Of a stretch of 64,000 nt of DNA, positions 6,012 through 52,911 are shown one piece after another. Within the stretch, counting starts at the first letter, position 1, and each line of letters begins with the position of its first letter. The notes under the pieces are model-generated. The model saw only the letters and a list, made by a program, of their open reading frames with translations, did no database searches and had not been told where the DNA came from. The position numbers and the translations under genes were made by a program. The stretch is from Gammaproteobacteria bacterium (lineage in GTDB: Bacteria; Pseudomonadota; Gammaproteobacteria; Burkholderiales; Rhodocyclaceae): NCBI GenBank assembly GCA_038322845.1, contig JBBQGH010000003.1:2130-66129 (forward strand), given 5' to 3'.

Positions 6012-6732
6012 GGTTCTCACGACGGAAGATGTAGTTGCGGCCTTCCGTGTGGATCAGCCGGAAGCCGCATCCAGCAAGCCGGTCCGCCGCCGCTTTGGTT
6101 TCTTCGAGACTGTGATGCGTGACGCCATGATGGAACTCGATGAGCACCTGCCGGGCGAGACGGATATCGCCGCTGTCGCATAGCTGTGCCAACACTGCAT
6201 ACTCCGCGCCTTCGACATCGACTTTCAGAACGTCGCATTCCTGTCGCCCCGCGCGGGTAAGCGCCGCGCGCAAATCGACGGTTTCTACCGATAGAGATTC
6301 GCCACCCTCTACATATTCATGCGTACCCACCAGACTACCGGAGACGCCATCCGCGCCCTTTGGCAAATCCTGCTGCGCCCGCGGCAAATGAAACACCAAG
6401 GTTTCACCGGCTTTGCTCCAGAAGGCGCGCTCAAGTACTTCCATGCCGGCCAGTGGATGCGCGCGGCAGTAGGCCAGACTGCGCGGATTCGGCTCTATAC
6501 CCAGCACGCGAGCGCCGGGAAAACGCTGTAGGAAAGCCGCCGGAAAACTAATGTCTTCGCCCAACCCGGCATCGATGAGCAGCGGCTGCGCCCCGACCAG
6601 ACGAGTATCCACCCACCACCCGCCGTAACGCGTACCCAGGCGTGAGTAACCGCGCGGCAGCCACCATTCGCGCCAGCGGCGGCTCAGGCTGCGTTTGGTG
6701 CGCTCCCAATTCTTGCGCGGGCCGCCGATCAT
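6004..6732 (-). CDS. FkbM family methyltransferase
   Basis: DAGLGEDISF SAM-binding region, LKVDVEGAE and QVLIEFHH motifs. Confidence 0.82.
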   Translation of the reverse strand: MIGGPRKNWERTKRSLSRRWREWWLPRGYSRLGTRYGGWWVDTRLVGAQPLLIDAGLGEDISFPAAFLQRFPGARVLGIEPNPRSLAYCRAHPLAGMEVLERAFWSKAGETLVFHLPRAQQDLPKGADGVSGSLVGTHEYVEGGESLSVETVDLRAALTRAGRQECDVLKVDVEGAEYAVLAQLCDSGDIRLARQVLIEFHHGVTHHSLEETKAAADRLAGCGFRLIHTEGRNYIFRRENHG

Positions 6733-17834: not shown

Positions 17835-17956
17835 GCCGCGGATGACGCGGAGAAGCGCGGATGATGTTGAAGAAAGCCAGCGCAGGCTGCCCTTTGACGA
17901 TCTCACATTGCTGTGCAGGCCTCGGCCTTGGCATGTCATCCGTGTTCATCCGTGGC
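17835..17956. repeat. 9-nt-period inverted-array element, degenerate copy
   Basis: Left GCCGCGGATGACGCGGAGAAGCGCGGATG; right CATCCGTGTTCATCCGTGGC. Confidence 0.6.
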
Positions 17957-31474: not shown

Positions 31475-31633
31475 CACAAATACACGCAAATACACGCGGA
31501 TGAACGCGGATTAAAAGCGCTGGCGAATTTCAGTGGTTATTAATTTCGGTGATTACGTCGGGGCTGGAACGGCCTATCAAACAACATCGCCTTTATCTAA
31601 GTTCATCCGCGCTTATCTGCGTCAATCTGCGGC
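31475..31633. repeat. 9-nt-period inverted-array element between divergent rep and tlpA
   Basis: Left CACAAATACACGCAAATACACGCGGATGAACGCGGATT; right TTCATCCGCGCTTATCTGCGTCAATCTGCGGC. Confidence 0.7.
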
Positions 31634-36362: not shown

Positions 36363-37487
36363 TTAGTTGAACCACAATCTCATCGTGTCCCATGCGCGAC
36401 CGAAGATGCCGGCGACCGGCACTGCTTCCAGCGCCACCACCGAATAGTCGCCATACGGCTTGTCGTCCAGCGTCAGCTTGAGCGTGCCGACAACCTGGCC
36501 TGCTTGCACAGGTGCAAGCAGAGGCTGACGGCTTTCGAGCGAGGCCTTGACCTTGCCCACCATACCCTTAGGCAGAGAGAGGGTGAAGTCTTCGAGGAAG
36601 CCCGCCTTAACCAGATTCTGCGCGCCTTTCCAGACCCTCAATTGCGACACCGCTTGATTTTTTTCATAGAGCCGCACGGCATCGAAGAATTGAAAACCGA
36701 AGTTAAGTAGCTTCTGCGACTCCTGCGCGCGCAGAGTGTCAGAAGCGGTGCCCATCATCACCGTGAGCAAACGACGCGTACCCCGCTTCGCGGATGCAAT
36801 GAGACAGAAGCCGGCGTTTTCGGTGTGGCCGGTCTTCATGCCATCGACCGTAGCGTCCTGCCACAGCAGGCGATTGCGATTGGGTTGGGAGATGCGGTTG
36901 TAGGTGTATTCCTTGAGCGAATAGAGCGGGTAGTACTCAGGAAAGTCGCGGATCAGCGCAGCGGCCATCGTGGCGAGATCACGCGCGGTGGAATAGTGCT
37001 GCGGATCGGACAATCCGGTGGAACTCACGAAATGCGTGTTTTTGAGGCCCAGGCGCTGCGCTTCACGGTTCATCAACTGGACGAAATTGTCTTCGCTGCC
37101 GGCCACCGCCTCCGCCAGTGCGACGCAGGCGTCGTTGCCGGATTGCACAATAACGCCGTGCATCAGCTCGTCGACGGTGACGGGCTTGTTAGGCTCGATG
37201 AACATGCGCGAGCCTTGAGTCTTCCAGGCGCGCTCGGAAACCGCCACCGTCTGGTTGAGCTGCAAGGATTTTTGCTTTAACGCAGCGAACACCAGGTAAG
37301 CCGTCATGAGCTTGGTGAGCGAAGCGGGCTCGACACGCTCATCCGGCATGTAACTCGCCAACGGCTGGCCCGTGGCGTAATCCATCAACAGCCAGGATTT
37401 CGCGGCAAGCGTGGGTGCCTGCGGCTGCAACTGCGCATGCGCAAACGCGGCGAGGAATAATGAGAGGAGGAACGCGAGTGTTCTCAT
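36363..37487 (-). CDS. dacC: D-alanyl-D-alanine carboxypeptidase (PBP5/6)
   Basis: SLTK (SxxK), SGN and KTG motifs. Confidence 0.9.
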   Translation of the reverse strand: MRTLAFLLSLFLAAFAHAQLQPQAPTLAAKSWLLMDYATGQPLASYMPDERVEPASLTKLMTAYLVFAALKQKSLQLNQTVAVSERAWKTQGSRMFIEPNKPVTVDELMHGVIVQSGNDACVALAEAVAGSEDNFVQLMNREAQRLGLKNTHFVSSTGLSDPQHYSTARDLATMAAALIRDFPEYYPLYSLKEYTYNRISQPNRNRLLWQDATVDGMKTGHTENAGFCLIASAKRGTRRLLTVMMGTASDTLRAQESQKLLNFGFQFFDAVRLYEKNQAVSQLRVWKGAQNLVKAGFLEDFTLSLPKGMVGKVKASLESRQPLLAPVQAGQVVGTLKLTLDDKPYGDYSVVALEAVPVAGIFGRAWDTMRLWFN

Positions 37488-37559
37488 GGGGAAGTGTTAC
37501 CGCTATTGCGAGTTCGAAAGAAATTATACCGTCGGGACCGAGCTAGGCTTCTAGAAGGT

Positions 37560-37639
37560 ACTATGGTCTGTTCATAATTATTCTTACGGCGCGAAAAATA
37601 ACTATGAACAGACCCTAGTGCTATGAACAGACCCTAGTG
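37560..37639. mobile_element. Miniature inverted-repeat element / IS-end remnant
   Basis: 17-bp inverted repeats (37560-37576 and 37603-37619, 16/17 match) plus a tandem duplicate of the right end, CTATGAACAGACCCTAGTG x2. Confidence 0.55.
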
Positions 37640-37675
37640 TAGTGCTGCATCCTTGATAGAACATTTTTAAAAACA

Positions 37676-37754
37676 TGTATCATTCCCGCGCAGGCGGGAA
37701 TCCAGCGACGTGCCACCCCGAAGACACTGGAGCCCCACCTTCGCGGGGACGACA
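37676..37754. repeat. Inverted REP pair (REPIN-like, CGTC-type hairpins)
   Basis: TCATTCCCGCGCAGGCGGGAATCCAG ... CTGGAGCCCCACCTTCGCGGGGACGAC. Confidence 0.75.
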
Positions 37755-37795
37755 AAACCTGAGTTTATAAGCAGCACTTTGCATGCAACACCACA

Positions 37796-38851
37796 TCAGC
37801 GCTGAACCACAAAGGGCTTGAAGTCCAGCGTATCGCGTATCTTGTTGGCGACCCGCTTGGCTTCTTGCGCATCCGCGAAAGGCCCGAGCTGGACGCGATA
37901 CGTGCCGCCCTTGGGCTGTATCTGCAAGGTGCCGGAAAGCCCGGAAACCTGCTCCGCGACGCGAGCGCGGAAACTCTCGGCGTTGTCCTGACTAGCAAAA
38001 GCGCCCAGTTGCAGGAAGATGCCGCGCAGCTCGGCCACCGTAGGCACCGGTGGTTCGGGCGTAGGCGCGTCAGACTTGGCGTCGATCTGCGCGGCGGCCA
38101 TGGTGAGCTCGGCGAGCGGATCGGCCGCCAGCAGCGGATTACTGCGGGCGCCGGCGAGCAGCGTATCACCCGGCTGCACCACTTCGACTTCCACCATCGC
38201 GCTGCCGTTGCCCACATAGCCGAGCTTATAGGCGGCTGTGTAGGACAGATCGATTAGGCGGCCAGAGTGAAAAGGTCCGCGATCATTGACGCGCACGATG
38301 ACGGATTTTCCATTGGCGATGTTGGTGACGCGCACGTAGCAGGGTATAGGCAGCGTGGTATGCGCCGCTGTCATGCCGTACATGTCATAGATTTCGCCGT
38401 TGGAGGTCTTCTGGCCGTGGAATTTTCGCCCATACCAACTGCCGATGCCGCTCGCCTTGTAGGGCTTCAACTCCTTCATCGGCACGTAATCGCGGCCCAG
38501 CACCGAGTAGGGCTTGGTCGTGGCGCGGTTCAAGGGCTCGACCCGCGGCTCGGCGTCGGGGATGGCGTCGATATTTTCCGGCGCGTTGTCACCCGGACCG
38601 TCATCCATGTAATAGCCACCGCCTTTTTTGAGCGTGTAGAGCGGCTTGGATAACGCCACTTTCGGCGCAGGCGCTTTCACCACCGGTTCAGGCGCAGAAG
38701 GCCGTGGCAGGGGCGAGCTACAGGAGGCCAGCAAGAACAAGGCAAAAGCAGCCGCGGATTGCACGGATAAACGCGGATGATCCAAAAAAATTCCGCGTTT
38801 ATCTGCGCAATCCGTGCAATCCGCGGCAAAGACTTTTTTGATTTTGTTCAC
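37796..38851 (-). CDS. rlpA: Septal ring lytic transglycosylase RlpA (DPBB + SPOR)
   Basis: GIGSWYGRKFHG, TAAHTTLP, VRVNDRGPF and SPOR LQLGAF motifs; GTG start overlaps the rodA stop; lipobox LASC at residues 41-44. Confidence 0.9.
   Translation of the reverse strand: MNKIKKVFAADCTDCADKRGIFLDHPRLSVQSAAAFALFLLASCSSPLPRPSAPEPVVKAPAPKVALSKPLYTLKKGGGYYMDDGPGDNAPENIDAIPDAEPRVEPLNRATTKPYSVLGRDYVPMKELKPYKASGIGSWYGRKFHGQKTSNGEIYDMYGMTAAHTTLPIPCYVRVTNIANGKSVIVRVNDRGPFHSGRLIDLSYTAAYKLGYVGNGSAMVEVEVVQPGDTLLAGARSNPLLAADPLAELTMAAAQIDAKSDAPTPEPPVPTVAELRGIFLQLGAFASQDNAESFRARVAEQVSGLSGTLQIQPKGGTYRVQLGPFADAQEAKRVANKIRDTLDFKPFVVQR
38751..38827. repeat. 9-nt-period palindromic element inside the rlpA 5' coding region
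   Basis: Perfect 18-bp terminal inverted repeats GCCGCGGATTGCACGGAT / ATCCGTGCAATCCGCGGC, with inner AAACGCGGA / TCCGCGTTT. Confidence 0.85.
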
Positions 38852-39933
38852 TTTTGAACAAGCATCCGATGCTTGTGGATGCTCATGAGAATACCGATGC
38901 CCAGAAACAGCGTCACCAGCGCAGTGCCGCCATAGCTAACGAGCGGGAGCGGCACGCCCACTACCGGCAGGATGCCGCTCACCATGCCCATATTCACGAA
39001 CGCGTAGGTGAAGAAGATCAGCGTGATGCTGCCGGCAAGTAGGCGCGAGAATAGGGTCGGCGCGTTGCCGGCGATCATGAGGCCGCGTGCGATGAGCAAC
39101 GCATAGAGCACCAGCAGCACGACGATGCCGAGAAGACCGAATTCTTCGGAGAGTACGGCGAAAATAAAATCGGTATGGCGTTCCGGGAGGAACTCCAAAT
39201 GCGTCTGCGTGCCATGCCCCCAGCCCTTGCCCAGCAGCCCACCCGAGCCAACAGCGATGGTGGACTGAATGATGTGAAAGCCTTTGCCGAGCGGATCTTG
39301 CTCAGGATCGAGCAGGGTGAGTATGCGACTGCGCTGATAGTCGCGCAGCACCGACCACAACAGCGGCAAACTCGCCAGCCCCCCCACGGCCATGGCAATA
39401 AGCACTTTCCAACTGATGCCGGCGAGAAAAATGACATAGAAGCCGACAGCGAGTACGAGTATGGCGGTGCCCAAGTCGGGCTGGCGCGCGATCAACGCCA
39501 CCGGCGCAACGAGCATGAGGGCGGCAAAGGCGAATTCCTTCCAGCGCAGCATGGCCTCGTGCTTCTGGAAATACCACGCAAGCATGAGCGGCATGGCGAT
39601 CTTCATGATCTCCGAAGGTTGAATGCGCATGAAGCCCAGATTGAGCCAACGTCGCGCACCTTTGGACACATCACCGAACAAGGCCACGGCGATGAGCAAG
39701 AGAAAGCCGCCGACATAAAGCGGCAGCGCCAAGTGCATCAGGCGCTGCGGTGGAATCTGGGCGGCAATACGCAGGACCACCAGCGCGACACCGAGGTTGA
39801 GCAACTGGCTCACCAAGCGCTCACTAGAAGCACTGGCGAGCACGAGCATGGCATAGCCCAGCAGCAAACAGACGATGGCCATCAGCGGCGGATCAATGGG
39901 AGCGACGAGGCGGCGCCAAAGATTCCTAATCAC
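38848..39933 (-). CDS. rodA: Rod shape-determining protein RodA
   Basis: GARRWLNLG, IQPSEIMK, QPDLGTA, PERHTDFIF and LPLVSYGG (SEDS motifs). Confidence 0.93.
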   Translation of the reverse strand: MIRNLWRRLVAPIDPPLMAIVCLLLGYAMLVLASASSERLVSQLLNLGVALVVLRIAAQIPPQRLMHLALPLYVGGFLLLIAVALFGDVSKGARRWLNLGFMRIQPSEIMKIAMPLMLAWYFQKHEAMLRWKEFAFAALMLVAPVALIARQPDLGTAILVLAVGFYVIFLAGISWKVLIAMAVGGLASLPLLWSVLRDYQRSRILTLLDPEQDPLGKGFHIIQSTIAVGSGGLLGKGWGHGTQTHLEFLPERHTDFIFAVLSEEFGLLGIVVLLVLYALLIARGLMIAGNAPTLFSRLLAGSITLIFFTYAFVNMGMVSGILPVVGVPLPLVSYGGTALVTLFLGIGILMSIHKHRMLVQK

Positions 39934-41824
39934 CGCTATCCTCTTCCGCCGAGGCGTCCACGGCTGGTTCTTTGGGTAGCTTGCCGAGGAGGTAGTAGTC
40001 CAACACCTGTCGGGCGATGGGCGCGGCGGACTGGGCACCGAAGCCGCCGTTTTCAACCAGCACGGCCAGCGCAATTTTAGGATTGTCCACCGGTGCAAAC
40101 GCGATGAAGAGCGCGTGATCGCGCAAACGCTCCTTCACCTTGCCTTCGGTATATTTCTCGCCCTTCAGGCTGTACACCTGCGCCGTGCCGGTCTTGCCGG
40201 CCGAGACGTATTCCGCACCGGCAAAAGCGCGTGCGCCCGTGCCTTCCTTGTTCACGCCGACCATGGCTTGCTTGATGATATCGATATTGGCTTGTTTGAG
40301 CGGTATGGTGCGCAAAGGTTGCGGCTCGATGATGCGCTTTTCGCCGGTACGTATGTTCTGGATGTGGCTCACCACATGCGGGCGATACATAACGCCGTTA
40401 TTGGCCAGCGCTGCCATCGCCTGGGCGAGCTGGATGGGCGTGTACGCATTGTAGCCCTGACCGATGCCGATAGAGATGGTCTCACCGGCATACCATTTCT
40501 GCTGCTCCGGCCGCTTGTAGTGCGTACGCTTCCATTCCTGAGACGGCAAAACGCCACGCGATTCTCCTTCTATGTCGATGCCAGTGGCCTGACCAAAGCC
40601 GAACGGACGCATAAAGGCAGCAATGTTGTCGATGCCCAAATCGTTGGAGAGCATGTAGTAGTAGGTATCGCAGGACTGCACGATGGACTTATACATATCC
40701 ACGCTGCCATGGCCGCCCTTCTTGTCGTCGCGGAATTGGTGATTGCCGAAATTGTAATAACCCGGATCGAAAATAACCTGGCTCGGCGTGCGCTTGCCCA
40801 GCTCCAGCGCCGCCAGCGCCATGTAAGGCTTGAAGGTCGAGCCGGGCGGATAGGTGCCGTTAAGTGCGCGGTTCAACATCGGTTTGTCTTCGGACGTGTT
40901 GAGCGCGTCCCAGTCTTGTGGATTGATGCCGTCGACAAACAGGTTCGGGTCGTAACCCGGCATGGAAACCAGCGCCAGCACGCCGCCATTGCTGGGGTCG
41001 ATGGCGACCAGCGCGCCGCGCCGGTCGCCGAAGGCTTTCTCTACGACCTGTTGCAACTTGATATCCAAAGTGAGCATCAGGTTGTCGCCTGGTACCGGAG
41101 CGGTGCGTGCCAGCACCCGCACCGCGCGCCCGCCGGAATCAACCTCGACCTGCTCGAAGCCGGTCTGGCCATGCAGATCGAATTCGTATTTCTGCTCCAG
41201 ACCCGTCTTGCCGAAGTGCTCGGTGCCGCGATAGTTGTCTTCGGCGTTATGGTTCTCGATGGCATCGAGATCACGATCATTCACGCGACCGATATAGCCG
41301 AGGGCGTGCGACGCCAGCTCGCCGTAAGGATACTGACGAAACAGGCGCGCCTTAATCTCGACGCCGGGAAAACGATAGCGCTGCGCGATGAAGCGCGCGA
41401 CTTCTTCGTCGGTGAGGCGCGTGCGTATGGGTAGAGATTCGAAATTCTTGCTTTCTTCGAGTAATTTTTTGAAACGTTTGCGGTCCTTGATCTGGATGTC
41501 GATGACTTTCGCCAACTCGTTGATGACCGTCTCCAGATCACCCGCCTTGTCGGGCATGATCTCCAACGTATAGGCGGAGTAGTTGCGTGCCAGCACCATG
41601 CCGTTGCGGTCGACAATGAGGCCGCGATTGGGTACTACAGGCACCAGCGAAATACGGTTTTCCTCGGCGCGCGTCTGGTAATACTCGTGCTGGATTACCT
41701 GCAACCAGAAAAAGCGTGCGAACAAAAGCGCGAAGGCGAAAAGCACAAAGCCACCCGCCACCGCCAGCCGGCGCTGGAACTGACGTATCTCATGTTCAGG
41801 ATTGAGAAATTCAGTGGGATGCAT
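39926..41824 (-). CDS. mrdA: Penicillin-binding protein 2
   Basis: PPGSTFKP (SxxK), SCDTYYY and KTGTAQ motifs. Confidence 0.93.
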   Translation of the reverse strand: MHPTEFLNPEHEIRQFQRRLAVAGGFVLFAFALLFARFFWLQVIQHEYYQTRAEENRISLVPVVPNRGLIVDRNGMVLARNYSAYTLEIMPDKAGDLETVINELAKVIDIQIKDRKRFKKLLEESKNFESLPIRTRLTDEEVARFIAQRYRFPGVEIKARLFRQYPYGELASHALGYIGRVNDRDLDAIENHNAEDNYRGTEHFGKTGLEQKYEFDLHGQTGFEQVEVDSGGRAVRVLARTAPVPGDNLMLTLDIKLQQVVEKAFGDRRGALVAIDPSNGGVLALVSMPGYDPNLFVDGINPQDWDALNTSEDKPMLNRALNGTYPPGSTFKPYMALAALELGKRTPSQVIFDPGYYNFGNHQFRDDKKGGHGSVDMYKSIVQSCDTYYYMLSNDLGIDNIAAFMRPFGFGQATGIDIEGESRGVLPSQEWKRTHYKRPEQQKWYAGETISIGIGQGYNAYTPIQLAQAMAALANNGVMYRPHVVSHIQNIRTGEKRIIEPQPLRTIPLKQANIDIIKQAMVGVNKEGTGARAFAGAEYVSAGKTGTAQVYSLKGEKYTEGKVKERLRDHALFIAFAPVDNPKIALAVLVENGGFGAQSAAPIARQVLDYYLLGKLPKEPAVDASAEEDSGD

Positions 41825-52790: not shown

Positions 52791-52807
52791 GGGAAATTAA
52801 AAGCAAA

Positions 52808-52911
52808 GCAGCCGCGGATTTCGCCCCGCAGGAAGTCCCCTTGAGGGGCGCGGATGACACGGATTTTCTTCTTTGGATTTATCCGCGTTCATCCGCGAAA
52901 TCCGCGGCTGC
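52808..52911. repeat. 9-nt-period palindromic element carrying a nested insertion
   Basis: Perfect 17-bp inverted repeats GCAGCCGCGGATTTCGC / GCGAAATCCGCGGCTGC; left arm interrupted by CCCGCAGGAAGTCCCCTTGAGGGG. Confidence 0.8.

Follow-up and report, generated by a model that had tools for sequence, protein, structure and literature searches.

A dispersed palindromic repeat lies in frame within the RlpA signal peptide of an uncultured Rhodocyclaceae bacterium and is probably translated as part of it

We investigated a palindromic element located inside rlpA, the gene encoding the RlpA lipoprotein, in a 64,000-nt stretch (hereafter, the window) of contig JBBQGH010000003.1, positions 2,130 to 66,129, from the metagenome-assembled genome GCA_038322845.1 of an uncultured member of the Rhodocyclaceae (G000; 2.63 Mb in 84 contigs, 58.8% G+C). 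The element belongs to a dispersed family of repeats built from 9-10-mers with a CGCGGAT core, and it occupies the portion of rlpA that encodes the n-region of the signal peptide, in frame and free of stop codons. We consider it probable that the element is translated through, as a disposable extension of the RlpA signal peptide, a reading that draws on comparison with the rlpA leaders of related bacteria. The anatomy of the element, its family membership, the usual niche of the family, its absence from the rlpA genes of relatives, and the conservation of an open frame through other repeats at the same site are direct observations, described below.

Anatomy of the element and of the RlpA leader

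Read from the GTG that overlaps the rodA stop codon, the RlpA N-terminus is VNKIKKVF-AADCTDCADKRGIFLDHPRLSVQSAA-AFALFLLAS-C, placing the lipobox Cys at residue 44, as stated in the initial annotation of this locus (Table 1). In the 5' to 3' direction of the mRNA, the core palindrome consists of a 5' arm of four 9-nt units (38827-38792), a 14-nt A/T loop (38791-38778), and a 3' arm of three units (38777-38751). The 18-mer GCCGCGGATTGCACGGAT is present without mismatch at both ends of the palindrome (38751-38768 on the plus strand and 38810-38827 on the minus strand); with up to three mismatches allowed, it has 4 matches in the window compared to 0.18 expected, and none of 100 shuffled sequences yielded 4. 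Both the direct reading and these match counts bear out the annotation of a 77-bp palindrome with perfect 18-bp ends, lying in frame within the signal peptide. The RNA fold of a 126-nt stretch around the element has an energy of -56.4 kcal/mol (z = -6.5), and that of the 77-nt core by itself, -48.3 kcal/mol.

The 77 bp hold for the core, but probably not for the full length of the element. Because other copies in the family keep A-run and T-run flanks beyond the 9-mer arrays, the true element probably extends over about 95 bp (Table 1), and in the RNA folds these outer flanks pair as an outer stem. The full element would then probably also encode K5-K6-V-F at one end and A-A-F at the opposite end, the A-run supplying the Lys codons K5-K6 (AAAAAAGTCTTTGC) and the T-run supplying A-A-F (GCTGCTTTT). 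An assembly artefact is ruled out: in an independent assembly, made by Logan from run SRR19962014 (locus L215), the end of rodA, the element, and the 5' end of rlpA are all identical. Neither the rodA-rlpA leader of the window nor those at the loci of six relatives matched any Rfam family at E <= 1.

The gene itself encodes a genuine RlpA, the septal lytic transglycosylase lipoprotein, given the presence in its mature part of a DPBB_1 domain (lytic transglycosylase; E = 6e-26) followed by a C-terminal SPOR domain (E = 4.8e-16), and it is encoded downstream of mrdA-rodA. This mature part, 307 residues, is open throughout, and both domains score well. The residue following Cys44 is Ser, and the residues past the Cys, CSSPLPRPSAPEP, align with CSSQLPRVPAPEP and CGSQPPRLPAPEP of the nearest relatives, an alignment in which Cys44 is homologous to the lipobox Cys of those proteins. 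The leader retains the architecture of a type II signal peptide, with a positively charged n-region (six K/R versus four D/E), R27 adjoining the h-region AAAFALFLLA, and then L-A-S-C44, in agreement with the lipobox pattern [LVI][ASTVI][GAS]C.

In the public annotation (protein cluster P0001, locus L215), this rlpA is called from V57 and encodes 295 aa. Because this call starts downstream of the lipobox, the deposited RlpA lacks a signal peptide; automatic gene callers are misled by the repeat in rlpA.

The CGCGGAT repeat family and its niche

In the G000 genome, we found 34 clusters of at least three CGCGGAT/ATCCGCG cores, about 30 of which are real elements. Family copies, 65-160 bp in length, have two facing arms of 18-26 bp around a variable centre of 13-120 nt that at times holds other small repeats, and single arms are present as well. 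The consensus arm, GC-CGCGGAT-T(T/G)-CGCGGAT-GAA-CGCGGAT, comprises three units with a period of 9-10 nt. Outside the arrays, a conserved flank, aaaa..cTTTTGC, directly precedes the first CGCGGAT (consensus of 46 array ends), and five near-identical copies in the related genome G001 stay conserved for 18-20 nt past the arrays. These A-run/T-run flanks are mini-palindromes and seem to belong to the element. The window contains three further copies (Table 1), and the AAAGCAGCCGCGGATT end of the rlpA element is shared with one of them, near 52805-52820, as had been noticed initially. One arm of that copy, and likewise of G000:C51:8059-8111 and G000:C38:~6660-6700, carries a GCCCCGCAGGAAGTCCCCTTGAGGGGC-like hairpin nested between its first and second units, that is, a repeat within a repeat.

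According to gene positions predicted with a crude codon-usage gene caller, all real copies in G000 except the one in rlpA are intergenic, and nearly all adjoin the 3' end of a gene, at 2-60 nt from its stop codon. Located 23 nt behind the rodA stop, the copy in rlpA thus sits in the normal niche of the family, and it is intragenic because the rlpA start overlaps that stop.

The family is abundant (at least 10 arrays) in 4 of the 28 genomes of the genus (G000, G015, G016, and G001); three more have an isolated match or two, and roughly 200 further genomes of the order lack the family, save for one short tandem match in a single genome. No relative among the 28 genus genomes, including the other family-bearing ones, carries a CGCGGAT element in rlpA. 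Restriction of the family to a few genomes, none of which has the element in this gene, implies a lineage-specific insertion.

Repeats at the rodA-rlpA junction of relatives

To place the element in a comparative context, we mapped the rodA stop codon and the lipobox Cys at 143 genomic and metagenomic loci, among which 60 loci with 51 unique leaders form a clade defined by a RodA tail ending in MLVQK and labelled Sterolibacteriaceae/Rhodocyclaceae in record titles and taxonomy. The tail, SIHKHRMLVQK immediately before the stop in the window, is conserved throughout this clade. In RlpA matches from 41 genomes, residues 1-26 of the query were never aligned. Each of the 22 repeat-free leaders of the clade shares the frame of the overlap position and encodes a lipoprotein signal peptide of 14-20 residues (for example, MKSLLPILALLVAAC, VIARLAAIAMVLVLAAC, and MKRIFFLALWPLFLAAC); 21 begin at an ATGA/GTGA overlap. 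Orthologues without repeats thus do not share the long N-terminus, which the initial annotation had named as evidence that would refute its reading. These observations identify the overlap as the ancestral position of the rlpA start in the clade.

Many relatives carry, directly after the overlap start, a different repeat, a GC-rich composite of about 150 nt that encodes PHPPTPAPGQGS...SLRERAVSPWGG. This repeat is multi-copy in the genomes of the relatives, and nested extra modules expand the leaders to 191-377 nt; G000 itself retains one diverged copy (G000:C28:20795-20944, 69% identity). At locus L114 (genome G044), the site is occupied by an analogous palindrome made of CGCCGAG 8-mer arrays, from a family that is dispersed in that genome with 18 arrays.

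The junction is thus a hotspot for repeats, and the frame through them is mostly conserved. Among unique leaders of at least 100 nt, 20 of 23 are in frame with the overlap start, in 15 different lengths between 110 and 377 nt, including 110, 128, 191, 194, 197, 200, 233, 236, 242, 248, 263, 293, 365, and 377 nt. These in-frame leaders contain no stops in 1,533 frame-0 codons, compared with 18 (excluding the rodA stop) and 10 in the other two frames, and in the alignment, indels of 1 nt and 2 nt are offset elsewhere in the same leader. Some of the leaders, such as L013, have no canonical start codon between the overlap ATG and the h-region. Two of the three off-frame leaders (L012 and L021) use a separate GTG start preceded by a Shine-Dalgarno motif, yet they also read through an array palindrome. 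Together, these patterns provide strong, if phylogenetically non-independent, evidence that repeats at the rodA-rlpA site are translated as part of pre-RlpA.

Several further features of the junction were observed. In L005 (G015), L010 (G002), L017 (G017), and L018 (G006), it holds a tandem array of GTGAGGN heptamers, in which each unit presents a GTG after an AGG(A) Shine-Dalgarno-like motif, and rlpA begins at one such GTG, 13 nt past the rodA stop. Arrays of GTGAGGN make up a dispersed family of inverted-pair repeats, with 73 matches in G015 and 16 in G017. One architecture, a palindrome whose arms are direct arrays of 7-9-nt units, is seen across the genus in several dispersed families (G000, G015, G017, and G044), the unit varying by genome (CGCGGAT, GTGAGGN, or CGCCGAG). 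A TTGCCGC array at the junction of G008 was rejected as a dispersed family, being present at that locus alone.

History of the leader in this lineage

In the RlpA tree, the sister of the window protein is L031, a metagenome sequence with two tandem copies of the big composite repeat, and the next relative out (G016) has one copy. The leader in the window is therefore a product of turnover, in which the big repeat was lost or replaced and the 9-mer element was gained. The clean gap of about 75-78 bp that the initial annotation expected against relatives did not materialize: such a 78-bp gap is not demonstrable because the leader arose by turnover and the nearest two relatives carry another, larger repeat. 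For the same reason, and because the flanks of the element overlap K5-F8 and A35-F36, we do not accept MNKIKKVF joined to AFALFLLASC by clean excision of 78 bp as the ancestral N-terminus. Searches for an allele with an empty site were negative in the contigs of the Joint Genome Institute (JGI) metagenomes, where the best match has 80% identity and carries a different repeat, and in a collection of 5.8 billion proteins, where only the window's own cluster was retrieved, at 100%.

L010 (G002) and L013 (G018) have near-identical mature RlpA sequences (branch lengths 0.037 and 0.017) and wholly different leaders, including the h-region: one is of a 67-nt heptamer type, which is scattered over the RlpA tree, and the other of a 194-nt composite-repeat type. 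This distribution suggests that whole leader cassettes are swapped by recombination.

Probable read-through of the element and alternative explanations

We propose that a non-autonomous palindromic repeat of about 77-95 bp lodged just behind the rodA stop codon and, because the rlpA GTG overlaps this stop, landed in the sequence encoding the n-region of the RlpA signal peptide, where the net insertion would leave the reading frame open. Ribosomes ending rodA would re-initiate at the GTGA overlap, melt the hairpin, and read through, producing a 44-residue prolipoprotein signal peptide with a long, net-positive n-region, R27, the AAAFALFLLA h-region, and LAS ahead of the modified Cys. Sec, Lgt, and LspA would process this precursor normally and the extension would be degraded together with the signal peptide, as in established lipoprotein biogenesis, so that mature RlpA would be unchanged and the insertion would be a tolerated, essentially neutral passenger. 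For G000 itself, we infer translation from the GTG, processing through the lipoprotein pathway, and neutrality. The suggestion in the initial annotation that the insertion is tolerated because the signal peptide is cleaved off gains support from the in-frame, stop-free repeats found at the same site in relatives.

Several observations weigh against this scenario. The signal peptide, 44 residues compared to 14-20 in repeat-free relatives, is far longer than the usual type II signal peptide (about 15-25 residues) and includes four acidic residues in the n-region, and a hairpin of -48 to -56 kcal/mol that begins 24 nt past the start codon could impede translation. In a single genome, an insertion would be in frame and open by chance roughly one time in four. 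At the site, the two nearest relatives have another repeat, which indicates turnover or replacement rather than simple insertion into an unaltered signal peptide, and neither the 28 genus genomes nor the GTDB genome contigs yielded an empty-site allele. Finally, in L011 (G003, a complete genome), the only true exception among the repeat-bearing leaders, the repeat is off frame with the ATGA start, 2 nt short. The L011 leader, 192 nt in length, has two 1-nt deletions, in C and G runs, and includes an in-frame TTG within the repeat that could be the start of rlpA in that genome; sequencing error, frameshifting, or loss of export might also account for its frame.

One alternative for the window locus is an internal start: translation of rlpA could begin within the element, which would donate the start codon and n-region, the likeliest candidate being the TTG at L23. 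Starting there would yield a 22-residue signal peptide, MDHPRLSVQSAAAFALFLLASC; this in-frame codon falls within the 14-nt loop, and downstream of it come an n-region containing R and an intact h-region and lipobox. The argument that many repetitive extragenic palindromes (REPs) annotated at the N-termini of open reading frames (ORFs) actually precede the true start (Di Nocera et al. 2013, PMC3733652) also counts in favour of this possibility. However, the TTG has no convincing Shine-Dalgarno sequence, the upstream GCGGA being sequestered in the stem; re-initiation at the GTGA would put ribosomes in that frame as well, so that the long form would still be expected; and relatives with other repeats have no such internal start, yet keep the frame from the overlap start. 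On balance, we regard an internal start as unlikely. The GTG at V30, which the initial annotation had raised as an alternative, is an improbable start for another reason: it falls in the 3' stem arm, and its product, MQSAAAFALFLLASC, would have no charged n-region.

A different view of the same sequence is that the insertion crippled the export or expression of RlpA, leaving a non-essential gene that was recently disabled and is now decaying. Model bacteria can do without RlpA, and the atypically long, partly acidic leader and the strength of the hairpin fit this idea. Set against it are the open mature part with its well-scoring domains and an N-terminus that aligns with those of relatives, the intact h-region and lipobox, and the conservation of frame across the clade in even longer leaders (up to 126 residues), which argues that such leaders work. 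Disablement thus seems very unlikely to us. The hairpin might instead have been exapted at the RNA level, to act within the operon as an attenuator or partial terminator, to stabilise the mrdA-rodA message at its 3' end, or to restrain translational coupling from rodA to rlpA; in the latter version, it would set the RodA:RlpA ratio, and a role in the RNA would be compatible with read-through translation. Consistent with such a role, the flanks of the family (A-run, GC-rich stem, and T-run) resemble bidirectional intrinsic terminators, copies lie right behind stop codons, some hairpin repeat occupies the junction in most genomes of the genus, and a terminator scan detected a weak match to a sub-hairpin with the tail CTGCTTTTGC on the coding strand. 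This U-tract is interrupted, however, and matches are not in excess over shuffled sequence (3 found versus 1.8 expected); moreover, several lineages lack a repeat at this junction, and where one is present, it comes from unrelated families that differ in structure. We therefore judge exaptation of the hairpin to be quite improbable.

Beyond these alternatives, the rodA-rlpA overlap of the Sterolibacteriaceae clade might be a landing pad maintained by selection and not merely a tolerant spot, a conjecture that we hold to be doubtful. It draws on the occupation of the site by at least three unrelated families (CGCGGAT 9-mers, CGCCGAG 8-mers, and the composite of about 150 nt), all apparently read through, in leaders of 44-126 residues. 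If correct, occupancy of the site would reflect function: the hairpin might throttle the coupling of termination to re-initiation and thereby set the RodA:RlpA ratio, or, alternatively, the arms and flanks might supply the n-region (Lys) and the h-region (Phe, Leu, and Ala), so that signal peptides would be rebuilt from repeats.

Relationship to known repeat systems

In-frame palindromic repeats are already known, in the form of the Rickettsia palindromic elements and of intragenic REPs (PMC10969869, PMC3733652). The Rickettsia elements, about 100-150 bp long, encode a conserved peptide, and about half of the copies are intragenic in some families (PMC10969869, PMC3733652). The element in rlpA resembles them in being a copy of a dispersed, multi-copy, non-coding repeat that forms a stable palindromic hairpin and lies in frame, with no stop codon, in a genuine ORF where it would be read through. 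In contrast to the Rickettsia elements, which occupy many positions in ORFs, only 1 of the approximately 30 copies here is intragenic, and it lies in a cleaved signal peptide. The arms also differ, being arrays of 9-10-mers; kinship in sequence is not expected, and the likeness is drawn from published descriptions.

The family likewise shares features with the GTAG- and CGTC-tagged REPs and REP dimers (PMC3733652), which are short and palindromic, mostly occur as inverted pairs, lie between genes in unidirectional or convergent arrangement and close to ORF 3' ends, and are found in a minority of cases inside ORFs, often N-terminally. The mostly intergenic location of the CGCGGAT copies near the 3' ends of ORFs is REP-like in this sense. 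However, a REP unit is an imperfect palindrome of 20-40 bp with a GTAG/CGTC head, whereas a single CGCGGAT arm is not palindromic but a direct array of three units (GC-CGCGGAT-N2-3-CGCGGAT-N3-CGCGGAT). Moreover, N-terminal REPs are mostly assumed to have a downstream start (PMC3733652), whereas the comparative data presented here favour read-through. We rejected membership in the system of REPs and their associated RAYT transposases, given that there is no GTAG/CGTC tag and that Y1 transposase genes are not flanked by CGCGGAT arrays: PF01797 matches were obtained in all six genomes searched, and their flanks lack arrays with one exception, in G000. The exception (G000:C49:3-356, minus strand, at a contig end) is an IS200-type Y1 TnpA with an IS200-like TnpA motif. 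A CCCCGGGCAAAGCCGGGG hairpin lies upstream of this gene, and a copy of the 9-mer family (C49:560-615) is located about 200 nt away, an arrangement consistent with IS200/IS605 elements targeting hairpin repeats.

[quoted passage not shown] Unlike in MITEs, no target-site duplication, empty site, or parent insertion sequence with matching ends is evident (transposase flanks having been checked around the Y1 genes only), and, unlike in these three families, the centre of the CGCGGAT elements is highly variable and sometimes holds other small repeats. The family is best treated as unclassified and REP/MITE-like.

As for the signal peptide, the closest parallel is the extended signal peptide region (ESPR) of autotransporters, a conserved motif with a proposed function in precursors that are cleaved by signal peptidase I. 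Like the RlpA leader, the ESPR is a long N-terminal extension ahead of a normal n-h-c signal peptide that still uses Sec. The RlpA extension differs in being repeat-derived and variable and in preceding a lipobox, which entails signal peptidase II. Among the papers searched, we found none that connects MITEs or REPs with signal peptides.

In-frame palindromic repeats are textbook knowledge for Rickettsia, whereas elsewhere, repeats at the N-termini of ORFs are usually dismissed as mis-annotated starts. The rodA-rlpA locus offers unusually clean comparative evidence of repeat read-through. The cause might be the coupling of genes by ATGA or GTGA overlaps: in such an arrangement, the niche of the family behind a stop codon would coincide with a coding segment whose sequence hardly matters, namely, the n-region of a cleaved signal peptide. 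In consequence, gene callers truncate such genes, and signal-peptide predictors are likely to miss leaders of 44-126 residues. These natural long leaders would also allow direct testing of the tolerance of the Sec and lipoprotein pathways for long n-regions.

Features of the window and repeats downstream of rlpA

The genes discussed are encoded on the minus strand in the order PBP2 (39926-41824), rodA, rlpA, and a DacC-type carboxypeptidase (36363-37487); the coordinates of the remaining features are given in Table 1.

Table 1. Coordinates of the rlpA element, its gene context, and other family copies in the window
Feature	Position	Strand	Remarks
rlpA coding sequence	37796..38851	-	351 aa counted from GTG; from the ORF list
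rodA coding sequence	38848..39933	-	stop TGA 38848-38850; own GTG start overlaps the PBP2 stop
rlpA start codon GTG	38849..38851	-	GTGA overlap with the rodA TGA
h-region and lipobox AAFALFLLAS-C	38720..38752	-	lipobox Cys is residue 44, codon 38720-38722
77-bp core palindrome	38751..38827		encodes rlpA codons 9-34
Extra degenerate 9-mer unit TGCGCAGAT (C15-A16-D17)	38801..38809	-	no partner in the 3' arm; 9-nt bulge of the hairpin
Probable full element	38744..38838		adds A-run/T-run flanks AAAAGTCTTTGC ... GCTGCTTTT (mRNA strand)
In-frame TTG (L23)	38783..38785	-	in the hairpin loop; candidate alternative start
In-frame GTG (V30)	38762..38764	-	within the 3' stem arm
Second family copy	52813..52906		intergenic; nested small hairpin in the 5' arm
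Third family copy	17837..17954		intergenic
Fourth family copy	31495..31611		intergenic, degenerate

The 308-nt spacer between rlpA and dacC (37488-37795, minus strand) is crowded with other repeats, comprising a GTCCCCGCGAAGGTGGGGC hairpin, a ATTCCCGCCTGCGCGGGAAT palindrome similar to the Neisseria dRS3 repeat, and a tandem pair of CACTAGGGTCTGTTCATAG copies whose inverted partner, TATGAACAGACC, lies some 50 nt downstream.

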